Under the pieces are notes generated by a model. The model saw only the letters and a program-made list of their open reading frames with translations, was not told the origin of the DNA and ran no database searches. A program made the position numbers and the translations under genes. Positions 6,776 through 9,712 of a stretch of 64,000 nt of DNA are shown in pieces (the first letter of the stretch is position 1; each line of letters begins with the position of its first letter). This DNA comes from Candidatus Thorarchaeota archaeon. Lineage in GTDB: Archaea; Asgardarchaeota; Thorarchaeia; Thorarchaeales; Thorarchaeaceae. The stretch is from NCBI GenBank assembly GCA_963726195.1, contig CAVSBO010000003.1, positions 387,011-451,010 on the forward strand. The letters are read 5' to 3'.

Positions 6776-6796
6776 ATTAACTTGAACATCTGCACT

Positions 6797-6885
6797 TAGG
6801 GTCTGTCAATGTGGGAGTGTAGTTTTGATAAAGATAAGAAATTAGAGAAGTATAGGGTCTGTCAATAGGGGACTCAGGGGGGAGG
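6797..6885 (+). repeat. two direct copies of motif R1 (TAGGGTCTGTCAAT, the second extended by a G-string)
   Basis: TAGGGTCTGTCAAT occurs at 6797-6810 and 6853-6866. The second copy continues AGGGGACTCAGGGGGGAGG. A third copy is at 7661-7688. The 5' half resembles the S-gene terminator hairpin arm GGGGTCTGAAAT(A/G)GAC. Confidence 0.6.
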
Positions 6886-6903
6886 AATATTCTGTCCTCA
6901 ATG

Positions 6904-6945
6904 ACTGTCCACAGGCCATGCCGACAATTGACAAGGAAGAAAAAG
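6904..6945 (+). repeat. motif R3 copy (ACTGTCCAC..GGCCATGCCGAC..TTGACAAGG)
   Basis: GGCCATGCCGAC at 6914-6925 recurs as GGCCATGCCAAC at 8605-8616. Both copies are followed by TGAC..AGGAAGAAAAAG. Weaker relatives are at about 8079-8100, about 8271-8300, and in the S1-S2 spacer (AGACATGGCCAGCACAATCTC, 12493-12513). Confidence 0.5.
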
Positions 6946-7452
6946 TGATAAGATAGAAAAAACTGGAGAGAACTGAAATGAGAAGAAGCACGTCAAGATC
7001 ATGATTATAATTGTGTGTTTGATGATAAAAAGTAAGATGTAAGAAGGGAAATAGAAGTAAAAGAAAAATAAAAAAAGGAAGGAAAAAAAAAAAAAAAGAG
7101 AAAATAAAGTAAGATAGAATGGAAAGAGAGAAGAGAAAAAAATAGAGAAAAATGTAATAGAAGGAGGAGTTAAAGAGAAAAAAGAATATGAGAGAGAGAT
7201 TAAAGGATGAGATAAAGATGAATATAAATAAGAAGAAGAGAAAGATAATAAAAAAAAAATAAAAAGAAGAGATGAATGATATGAAAAGATAAAGGAGAAA
7301 AAAAAGAAGAAATGGATAGGAGAATGAAAAAAAATAGATAAAGAAATGAATAAAAAAAAAAAAAAAAAAAAAAGGAAGTATATGAATAGGGGATAAGAAT
7401 TAGATTTATAAAAGTAAATAGTATATGAAAAGGAGATATTTGGAATATACTA

Positions 7453-7640
7453 CTATGCTCGCATAGGCATAACCTGATTGATATGACTAGTTACTTGGAC
7501 ACGTCGTTCTAATAGTGAGATATACCTACGGGGAAACAACTGATAGCGTATATTTGGTCTTAACACTAAATAAGATCAGGCAGAACTAGCATAGGAATGT
7601 TACGTGTGACAACCAATCTCGGTTAGGAGTTATAAGAGAG
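7453..7640 (+). repeat. R2 copy 1: homolog of the surface-gene 5' region, with no gene behind it
   Basis: Shares ATTGATATG (7477-7485), GACACGTCG and TACGGGGAAACAAC with the S2 upstream region (ATTGATATG 12594-12602, GACGAGTC, TACGCGGGAAACGA 12643-12656). Ends in GTGACAACCAATCTCGGTTAGGAG, which resembles the S2/S4 Shine-Dalgarno region (GTTCAGGAGAG / GTTTAGGAGAG). It is followed by an R1 copy instead of a coding sequence. Confidence 0.6.
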
Positions 7641-7660
7641 ATTAATAAGTTATATAAATA

Positions 7661-7688
7661 GAGGTCTGTCAATGGACTCAGAGGGGGA
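7661..7688 (+). repeat. R1 copy 3 (GAGGTCTGTCAATGGACTCAGAGGGGGA)
   Basis: Direct match to the 6853-6885 motif. Compare the S3 terminator GGGGTCTGAAATGGACCCTGCCTCCCC: the first 17 nt are closely similar, then the terminator's pyrimidine tail is replaced here by a purine G-string. Confidence 0.6.
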
Positions 7689-8600
7689 AAGAACAACGAA
7701 CTATCAGAGACGAAGAAAGAAAAAAGAAAAGGAATGCTGATGAGATCCTAATAAAAGAAGAAAAAGAGAAAGAAGAAGGGAAGAAAAGGAGAGGAAAAGA
7801 GAAAAATAGGAAAGAGAAAGAATAAAAAAAAAAAAGAAGAAAAAAGGGAAAAAGAGATGAGAAAGAGAAAGAGAAGGAGATGGGAAAGAAAGGAAAAGGA
7901 TATGAAAAAAAAAAGAGGTATATAGATATACTCAGAGGACTATACGCAGTGAAAAATGGGTCAAAGAAAAAGAGAAAGAAAGAAAAAAAAAAGAAAAGTA
8001 AAAAGAAGAGATATAAAAGTAAGAGAAACTAGAAATAAAAAATGAGAACACGCCGTTACTGGTGTGACTGAGCTATACCAAGGCCAAGCCAACGACAGGC
8101 TTAGCGATGAGAACACGACAAAAAAAAAAAAAAAGAAAGAAGAAGGAAAAGGAAGAAAAGGAAAGAGAAAGAAAGAAAATATAGAAAAAGGAGAAATGTA
8201 AAAGAAGAGAAAAATAAGAAAAGAAGAAAAAGAGAGATAATATAAATAAGAGTATGCCGAAGCTCTAGAATGAAACTGTCCACGCTGCTTGACAGATAAG
8301 AAAAGATGACAAATCCTATCTTCAAATAGGGATTTGAGAAGAATTGGTATTGGTAGAATATGTACCTGTGACTGAATGGCCACGGACTGATGAAATATAC
8401 CTTTGTGACAGGACTTTATGTGCTGACAGAGAAAATGGGCGCTCAATCACTGTCGGAGATGTGTCTGCAGAGATAGATAGAAAGAAAGAAGGAGTGAAAG
8501 AAAAAAAGAAGAAAAAGAGAAAGAAAGTAGGTGAAAAGAAAAGGAGAGGGAAAAGAAAAAGAAAAGAAGGGAGAAAAAAAGACAATGACAAAGATGTCAA

Positions 8601-8637
8601 ACACGGCCATGCCAACTGACGAGAGAGGAAGAAAAAG
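8601..8637 (+). repeat. motif R3 copy
   Basis: ACACGGCCATGCCAACTGACGAGAGAGGAAGAAAAAG matches 6911-6945. Confidence 0.5.
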
Positions 8638-8666
8638 CTCGGACCGTGAGAAGAGACCATGAATCT

Positions 8667-8923
8667 CTATGCTCTAGGCATAACCTTGATATACTGTGTC
8701 CTTTGACACGTCGTTCTAATTGTGGATTTCCCACGAAACAAACGAGTTAGCTTGATTCTTGCCCGAACTAGGCAAAATAAAATGAGAGAAAAGAAAAAAA
8801 AAAAGAAAAGAGAGGAGAACTAGCATTGTTCCGTGGTGACACAACCAATCTCGAGAGAGGAGACTTAGCGAGAGATGGTCTTGCTGAACATAGCATTGTT
8901 CCGTGGTGACACAACCAATCTCG
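8667..8923 (+). repeat. R2 copy 2: surface-gene 5'-region homolog with an internally duplicated 3' end
   Basis: TATGCTCTAGGCATAACCTTGATATACTGTG..GACACGTCGTTCTAAT..GATTTCCCACGAAACAAACGA is collinear with 7453-7560 and with the S2 upstream region. The unit AGCATTGTTCCGTGGTGACACAACCAATCTCGA occurs twice, ending at about 8853 and at 8923. Confidence 0.65.
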
Positions 8924-8961
8924 AAAAAAAAAAAAAAAAAAAAAAAAAAAAAAAAAAAAAA
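8924..8961 (+). repeat. poly(A) homopolymer, 38 nt
   Basis: Uninterrupted A run directly after GGTGACACAACCAATCTCG (8905-8923). Confidence 0.95.
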
Positions 8962-9065
8962 GAACGTTGTTCTAACTGGGATTGACAGAAACAAATAGTC
9001 TAAGAGGAGAGAAAAAAAAAGTCAAGAGAAAGAATAGAAAAGTGAAAGGGTGACACAACGGAGAG

Positions 9066-9200
9066 AAAAAAAAAAAAAAAAAAAAAAAAAAAAAAAAAAA
9101 AAAAAAAAAAAAAAAAAAAAAAAAAAAAAAAAAAAAAAAAAAAAAAAAAAAAAAAAAAAAAAAAAAAAAAAAAAAAAAAAAAAAAAAAAAAAAAAAAAAA
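9066..9200 (+). repeat. poly(A) homopolymer, 135 nt
   Basis: Uninterrupted A run directly after GGTGACACAACGGAGAG (9049-9065). It is translated as poly-Lys in ORF 9050-12328, which is not credible as coding sequence. Confidence 0.95.
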
Positions 9201-9712
9201 CCATAGAAAGAGAAAGACCAACTACCACAACAGGCACCACAACTACCTCCACAAGCAGCACAACAACGAGCACTCAGCCACCGAAGGCAAAACCCTCTAC
9301 TGAAGGAGCAGTCGGCGCCAATGAGGTCAAGCCTCTAGTGAATGCTGAAAGAAGAAGTCGTGAGGATACAGAATCGGAAGAGAGGGAACAGAAACGGGCA
9401 CAGACACAACAGACCAATGAACAAACAGACAACAGGACACAAAAGAAAGAAGGAAAGAAGAAGAAGAAAACACACAAAACAAAAAGGAAAACGGACAAAA
9501 GACATAGAACGATGAGCATGACAAACAAGGATAGCAAAATTGAAACATGGAATGAGAAACGAATCACAAAAAAAAAGAGAAGAAAAGGAAAAAAAGAAAA
9601 AGAGAGAAAAAAAAGAGAAAAAAAAAAAAGAAAGAAAAAGAAAAGGAGAAAAGAAAAGAAAAAAAAAAAAAAAAGAAAAATGAAAGAAAAAACAAATCCG
9701 GGAGAGACACAT

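Follow-up and report, generated by a model that had tools for sequence, protein, structure and literature searches.

A 2.9-kb polypurine block in a Thorarchaeota contig is an in-register image of a surface-protein gene and very probably a technical artefact

The systems that most closely resemble the purine-rich block described in this work are H-DNA (intramolecular triplex) mirror repeats, simple-sequence tracts, diversity-generating retroelements (DGRs), base deaminases, degenerate pseudogenes, and the junk stretches of long reads. The block is 2.9 kb long and occupies positions 6780-9712 on the plus strand of the window, which is the whole 64,000-nucleotide (nt) stretch of a Candidatus Thorarchaeota contig that was analysed (GCA_963726195.1, contig CAVSBO010000003.1, positions 387,011 to 451,010). 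The block is flanked by a gene for an HtrA-like protease on its left and by the surface-protein gene S1 on its right, and the paralogues S2, S3, and S4 are located downstream of S1. The block is an in-register image of the HtrA-S0 spacer, the 2.6-kb gene of a fifth member of this family (S0), and the S0-S1 spacer. It is very probably a technical artefact.

H-DNA mirror repeats and the block both exhibit long runs in which one strand consists of A and G only. The block differs from these repeats because it has no symmetry beyond 15-nt arms outside homopolymers, its C-free stretches contain T, and its purines are derived from a gene. The (GAA)n, (GA)n, and poly(dA:dT) tracts are A-rich and G-containing sequences of low complexity, as is the block, and the record does contain genuine homopolymers in the runs of 38 and 135 A (A38 and A135). 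Unlike expanded microsatellites, the block has no repeat unit, and its homopolymers replace S0 sequence of similar length instead of adding to it.

The adenine mutagenesis of DGRs varies the positions of template A, and APOBEC-type deaminases or fungal repeat-induced point mutation change C to T or G to A. Both kinds of system are similar to the block in that the differences between a gene copy and its template affect one base class on one strand and include no insertions or deletions (indels). The block is unlike DGR products since template A is the best kept base (177/186), A is the product, and the changes are at C and T. It is also unlike the products of deaminase editing since deaminases yield transitions, and here C is changed to A at 95% and to T at only about 4% of positions. 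No reverse transcriptase was identified among the 18 larger open reading frames (ORFs) of the window that were scanned against Pfam, a scan that was not exhaustive. A degenerate surface-protein pseudogene would share with the block the underlying S0 gene of the S1-S4 family at the head of the cluster. Natural pseudogene decay, in contrast, consists of mixed substitutions and indels and not of about 45% change beside flanks that are 99.5-100% identical. The junk stretches of long reads that enter a long-read metagenome assembly where coverage is low and strains vary are similar to the block in their low complexity, their strand asymmetry, their presence in one contig version only, and the 1-nt consensus indels around them. 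The block differs from random junk in its exact register with a true gene over hundreds of bases and in its specific pyrimidine-to-A channel.

Register of the block with the S0 gene

The S0 gene was identified in loci related to the window. L001 (contig_64252 of the ENA assembly ERZ25039515) was found through an exact look-up of the S1 protein, and L003 (contig_64251 of the same assembly) was found through a sibling of S1 in its 90% cluster. L043 (from the unrelated JGI metagenome 3300039221) was found through a cluster sibling of S0. The HtrA-S1 interval of L003 is 3.3 kb long, is of ordinary composition, and encodes S0, which is frameshifted there. The S0 of L043 (P0021) is an intact ORF of 872 amino acids (aa) that shares the architecture of S1 and aligns with it over the full length at 47% identity. 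HtrA and S1 are only 305 bp apart in L001, and this spacer is of ordinary composition with no polypurine. The block is reproduced in neither the L001 nor the L003 version of the locus. Ordinary sequence is present upstream of the family genes in all related loci examined, and the five related loci exhibit no homopolymer longer than 7 and no C-free run longer than 30. A reading of the window made from its letters alone (the sequence-only reading) had proposed that a counterpart of normal composition between the same flanks would indicate that the block is technical or strain-specific, and counterparts of normal composition are present in L003 and L043.

When window 6776-9712 is aligned globally with L003 1077-4381, the two are collinear throughout, with gap-free runs of 200-400 nt. 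From L003 to the window, A is kept at 715 of 757 positions and G at 570 of 673. The pyrimidines behave differently, where C is changed to A at 438 positions versus 280 that keep C, and T is changed to A at 306 positions versus 360 that keep T. This alignment was scored with a matrix that favours pyrimidine-to-A changes, and the comparison was hence repeated without a matrix and without gaps. The sequence-only reading had listed four C-free stretches (7001-7449, which is 449 nt long, 7749-7930, 8120-8256, and 8469-8582), and their coordinates are exact. Each of them was slid ungapped along the reference, and only coincident G's were counted. Stretch 7001-7449 places 91 of its 99 G's on L003 G's at one offset (background 25.3±4.6) and 89 of the 99 on those of L043. 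Stretch 7749-7930 has 50 of its 51 G's in register with L003 (background 13±3.2) and 49 with L043. Stretch 8120-8256 has 29 of its 31 G's in register with L003 (background 7.9±2.4) and the same number with L043. The same test against the paralogues of the window itself yields at most 50 coincidences, and the test is not significant for stretch 8469-8582. The three stretches in register have no indels relative to S0 over 449, 182, and 137 nt.

The direction of the changes was counted over 834 ungapped nt that are fully converted. A is kept at 177/186 positions (95%) and G at 182/219 (83%), with G changed to A at 35 positions (16%) and to T at 2/219. C is changed to A at 203/213 positions (95%) and to T at about 4%, and it is kept at none. 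T is changed to A at 121/216 positions (56%) and retained at 92, mostly after C. Stretch 7001-7449 by itself exhibits C-to-A changes at 116 of 124 positions and no kept C. The mismatches in the better-preserved islands are likewise mainly pyrimidine-to-A, and both A38 and A135 align opposite S0 sequence of ordinary composition. At positions where the S0 alleles of L003 and L043 differ, the window matches L003. The parts of the block are as follows.

6776-6976 (plus strand): image of the HtrA-S0 intergenic spacer, moderately degraded, placed by the global alignment (L003 1077-1347)
6797-6816 and 6853-6872 (plus strand): 20-nt duplication within the HtrA-S0 intergenic image (repeat family D13)
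6977 to about 9347 (plus strand): degraded image of the S0 coding sequence; the ATG at 6977 is L003 1348 and the stop is at L003 ~3960
7001-7449 (plus strand): fully converted zone 1, C-free over 449 nt, no indels against S0
7749-7930 (plus strand): fully converted zone 2, C-free, G's in register with S0
8120-8256 (plus strand): fully converted zone 3, C-free, starts with A15, G's in register with S0
8469-8582 (plus strand): compressed C-free zone in which about 54 S0 bases are skipped and the S0 register is lost
8603-8926 (plus strand): islands that are 95-100% identical to the 305-bp spacer of L001, in S0 order, with purine-rich filler between them
8821-8854 and 8891-8924 (plus strand): exact 34-nt duplication (repeat family D7)
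8924-8961 (plus strand): A38 homopolymer, all sequence information lost
9066-9200 (plus strand): A135 homopolymer opposite L003 ~3655-3800, all sequence information lost
9201-9340 (plus strand): well-preserved 3' end of S0 with Thr-rich linker and membrane anchor (L003 3823-3950)
9348-9712 (plus strand): degraded image of the S0-S1 intergenic spacer (L003 ~3961-4381); its run 9568-9692 is C-free with a single T
6797-6976, 7450-7748, 8029-8119, 8257-8468, 8583-8923, and 9201-9340 (plus strand): islands of near-normal composition

The well-preserved 3' end keeps C at 43 of 48 positions and purines at 63 of 66 in comparison with L003 3823-3950. S0 has no open frame in the deposited block. The plus strand between 6267 and 8343 lacks any ORF of at least 60 aa, and the minus-strand ORFs across the block are rich in F, L, and S, as had been described before. 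The deposited letters of the block cannot encode S0. The earlier claim that the block cannot be coding holds for these letters and misses what they image, which is a 2.6-kb coding gene plus two spacers.

The base composition of the block is A 0.527, G 0.226, T 0.144, and C 0.104, compared with about 0.25 per base in the rest of the window. The block had been characterised as essentially A and G only, which is too strong since about one third of it consists of the near-normal islands listed above. The pure A/G runs of the deposited letters measure 141, 113, 60, 54, and 50 nt, and the long C-free stretches include T, which makes up about 15% of 7001-7449. This 449-nt run would have a chance probability of about 1e-59 at the background frequency of C. 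Two additional C-free runs are present at 9060-9200 and 9568-9692. The homopolymers A15 (7083-7097), A22 (7352-7373), A15 (8120-8134), A38, and A135 that had been reported are all present, and there is also an A16 at 9659-9674. The statement that nothing comparable occurs elsewhere in the 64 kb is borne out, as 7013-9734 contains every 100-nt window whose purine content reaches 85%. The Rfam and tRNA scans of the window returned no match. Exact-pattern searches with the S1 start and with a block-specific 40-mer found no match in genome contigs or metagenome contigs.

Technical and biological explanations of the block

The block is technical and not biological, very probably, since the bases change in the direction of A, the change passes gradually into a total loss of information, and it produces no indels. 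We know of no mutational process that combines these three properties. There is also no evolutionary time for about 45% of the bases of a gene to change, because the flanks differ from L001 by only 0-0.5%. On the right, the window and L001 have no nucleotide differences over 9693 to about 12500. On the left, L001 1-1615 corresponds to window 5200-6814 at 99.5% identity, with 3 substitutions and 4 indels in 1.6 kb. An assembly or basecalling artefact had been one of the options of the sequence-only reading, and it is the only one left standing in view of the S0 register and the loci of normal composition.

The artefact would have arisen from one or very few long reads over S0 that were systematically mis-basecalled, where the number of reads is our inference. 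The error channel runs from pyrimidine to A, in that purines were reported correctly and pyrimidines mostly as A, with the worst places becoming all A (A38 and A135). The r9.4.1 and r10.4.1 pore models assign low current to purines and high current to pyrimidines at the central position (PMC11978507). A transiently depressed or compressed signal would presumably turn pyrimidines into purines with the base count and register unchanged, and the basecaller would write a flat signal as poly-A. Real long-read sets are known to contain low-complexity 'junk' reads (PMC6966772). The strain-variable locus appears to have been assembled in three versions (the window, contig_64252, and contig_64251), with at least two haplotypes in the sample. 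The remaining reads would have been split among these three versions, and consensus polishing may in this way have left the bad stretch uncorrected. The source appears to be a long-read metagenome assembly, judging from the indel errors and from names such as contig_64251 and contig_64252. No published account of a pyrimidine-to-A error mode was found in the literature searched.

Several observations weigh against mis-basecalled long reads as the source of the block. Ordinary raw long-read sequence is noisier than the three stretches of 449, 182, and 137 nt, which contain no indel. Nanopore substitutions are ordinarily transition-biased (PMC8486125), whereas the changes in the block are transversions to A. 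The channel is also uneven, since C suffers more than T at 7001-7449 and the reverse applies at 9341-9567. L001 and L003 share one ENA assembly, which probably also holds the contig of the window, and L043, the only fully independent locus, belongs to a different strain. The islands at 8603-8926 match the odd 305-bp spacer of L001, a match for which mis-basecalled reads do not account.

The spacer of L001 (L001 1551-1854) is built of S0-derived fragments in S0 order. Window 8636-8741 matches it at 99%, 8817-8852 at 100%, and 8871-8926 at 95% in blastn. The window islands 8603-8741, 8817-8852, and 8871-8926 are only about 75-80% similar to the S0 of L003 and are rich in deletions. The L001 spacer could be a genuine deletion relic of S0 in the dominant strain, whose reads overwrote spots in the contig of the window. 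It could alternatively be a collapsed version of the same poor sequence. Whether the strain of the window has the full S0 gene or the relic, the polypurine block is not genomic. The candidate in which the L001 spacer is the true locus and the block is an insertion into it was revised, since L003 holds the whole gene there. The islands had also been tried as promoter or small-RNA-like conserved motifs (GGTCTGTCAAT, GTGACACAACCAATCTCG), and they proved to be fragments of S0 and the spacer.

A sub-variant of the technical explanation locates the fault in the consensus or polishing software, where a column-wise polisher working on a correct S0 draft would have written A at uncertain columns, where coverage was almost nil or conflicting. 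Such a per-column process suits the zero indels over about 770 nt of converted sequence in perfect S0 register. The reads at the locus would be divided among three contigs, and several islands are identical to L001 as though they had been overwritten by the same reads. A plain no-coverage default would, however, turn G into A too, and G is kept at 83%. The retention of T depends on context, mostly after C, and no such behaviour of polishers is documented in the literature searched. We regard this sub-variant as unlikely. A no-coverage default to A is rejected for the converted zones on the same retention of G, and it is possible for A38 and A135. Two other technical candidates were rejected on the kinds of change they predict. 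Illumina two-colour cross-talk that turns C and T into A predicts frequent G-to-T changes, which are seen at only 2/219 positions, and a lost bit in a 2-bit base encoding predicts T-to-G or C-to-G and not T-to-A and C-to-A. The altered molecule could also have been made in the tube, either by a polymerase that inserted A opposite abasic sites of a heavily depurinated template (the 'A rule') or by repair or nick-translation synthesis in a dATP-dominated pool during library preparation. Purine loss on the minus strand followed by insertion of A predicts C-to-A and T-to-A changes with purines kept and register preserved. The near-100% loss of G over 449 nt would nevertheless fragment the strand, and the 16% of G changed to A would be left unexplained. 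The relative loss of C versus T reverses along the block, the retention of T is context-dependent, and A135 would require a separate slippage event. Both in-tube origins taken jointly are very unlikely.

The biological explanations fare worse against the same evidence. The block could be real DNA of one Thorarchaeota strain in which a strand-specific hypermutation in vivo converted the coding-strand pyrimidines of the S0 paralogue to adenine and thereby destroyed it, with L001 as a later deletion derivative. The block does sit in the deposited record and was gene-called there, its islands are shared with L001 at 95-100%, and the cluster is a fast-evolving, strain-variable island. No known process, however, gives C-to-A and T-to-A changes on one strand at 50-100% density without indels, and flanks within 0-0.5% of L001 allow it no evolutionary time. 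The damage passes by degrees into the complete information loss of A38 and A135, ordinary consensus errors are present in the surrounding 15 kb, and nothing similar is found in any related locus. This hypermutation is extremely improbable. A real obliteration of S0 in one event, for example through template-strand purine loss and 'A-rule' translesion synthesis, or in variants through pyrimidine modification or damage read as A, has an equally slight chance of being correct. A genuine non-coding polypurine tract upstream of S1, which would act as H-DNA, a histone-excluding regulatory region, or a recombination hot spot or represent an expanded microsatellite, would account for the long pure A/G runs and for the location of the block 5' of S1. 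No expansion process would nevertheless replicate a coding gene base for base, as the G and A positions of the block do, and the related loci have ordinary sequence upstream of the family genes. Tandem Repeats Finder returned overlapping rows for the block with 62-86% matches, many conflicting periods, and no consistent repeat unit, with the exceptions of A38 and A135. The longest mirror arms outside the A homopolymers are only 15 and 11 nt. A genuine tract has next to no probability. The sequence-only reading had suggested H-DNA or a histone-free regulatory region, a recombination hot spot, and a hyper-expanded microsatellite, and none of these is supported.

Flanking genes, the variable island, and significance

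The genes that flank the block are as follows.

5809-6171 (minus strand): PDZ part of the HtrA-like protease (Pfam PDZ), in a different frame from the trypsin part
6035-6775 (minus strand): trypsin-domain part of the HtrA-like protease on the left flank (Pfam Trypsin_2)
9713-12328 (plus strand): S1 on the right flank, 871 aa, intact, with signal peptide, DUF7743, Big_7 domain (Pfam), and C-terminal anchor

The HtrA protein of the window is 97% identical to that of Candidatus Thorarchaeota OWC5, a metagenome-assembled genome from Illumina reads where the ORF is intact with 341 aa, and this identity assigns the window to an Asgard (Thorarchaeota) chromosome. It is split in the window by a 1-nt indel near 6040-6066, and it is also split in L001 at a different place (about 6212). 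The pseudogene look of HtrA is a consensus error, since the split sites differ between the window and L001 and the ORF is intact in OWC5. S1 starts with the ATG at 9713, and its protein is identical in L001. The public gene call of S1 in the NCBI and ENA record (P0012, 996 aa) begins with a GTG at 9338. The resulting N-terminal extension of 125 aa, which is rich in K, R, and E, is spurious and is translated from the degraded S0-S1 spacer.

The sequence-only reading had placed S1 directly 3' of the block as the only intact gene of its family. The adjacency stands, and the sole intactness is a product of 1-nt indels in S2 and S3 that L001 lacks. These isolated indels are located at 12821, 13063, 14493, 14847, 14886, 16424, 17358, 17779, and 17845. 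None of those that break S2 and S3 (region 12715-19121) is within a homopolymer, and S2 and S3 are intact in L001 with 946 and 1045 aa. The genes outside 5.8-21.4 kb of the window are intact relative to OWC5. The neighbourhood of about 15 kb with scattered 1-nt indels is the part of the contig that has alternative contigs. Such isolated 1-nt indels around the block are characteristic of a long-read consensus that was poorly polished. At the 3' end of S3 (window 17500-19100), the differences between the window and L001 rise from almost none to about 100 per 1.6 kb and are transition-rich, which suggests another allele or gene conversion between paralogues.

The whole surface-protein cluster S0-S4 (window ~6796-22058) is absent from OWC5, in which HtrA is immediately adjacent to the homologue of window 22058-24923, and the cluster is therefore a variable island. 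This observation is based on window 6796-22058, L004 9842-9981, L002, and L043. The gene order of the cluster differs in two JGI contigs, and the gene that comes after S0 in L043 is S2-like (84% nt identity) and is not S1. L003 is a mosaic in comparison with the window, with 88% identity on the HtrA side (133-1096) and 96% on the S1-S4 side (4362-16126), which points to recombination, to movement of the island from one lineage to another, or to a contig that is chimeric. Elsewhere in the window, the region 59912-63131 has a G+C content of 0.59 compared with about 0.51 and encodes two LVIVD-repeat proteins side by side, with an additional Ig-like domain in the second.

The biological importance of the block is most likely nil, and it offers no evidence that this Asgard genome contains an H-DNA tract, a regulatory element made of polypurine, or a zone free of histones. 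Its importance lies in quality control. A public metagenome-assembled genome of Thorarchaeota, deposited in NCBI and ENA, holds a garbled gene of 2.9 kb in a contig of 916,088 bp. The same record acquired a spurious N-terminus of 125 aa in S1 and the false appearance of pseudogenes in HtrA, S2, and S3. The error signature can be screened for, as it consists of in-register pyrimidine-to-A changes with purines kept that grade into poly-A, in strain-variable regions with alternative contigs. Garbled stretches of this kind can seed false claims of low-complexity proteins, poly-A tracts, pseudogene load, and eukaryote-like features in Asgard archaea.

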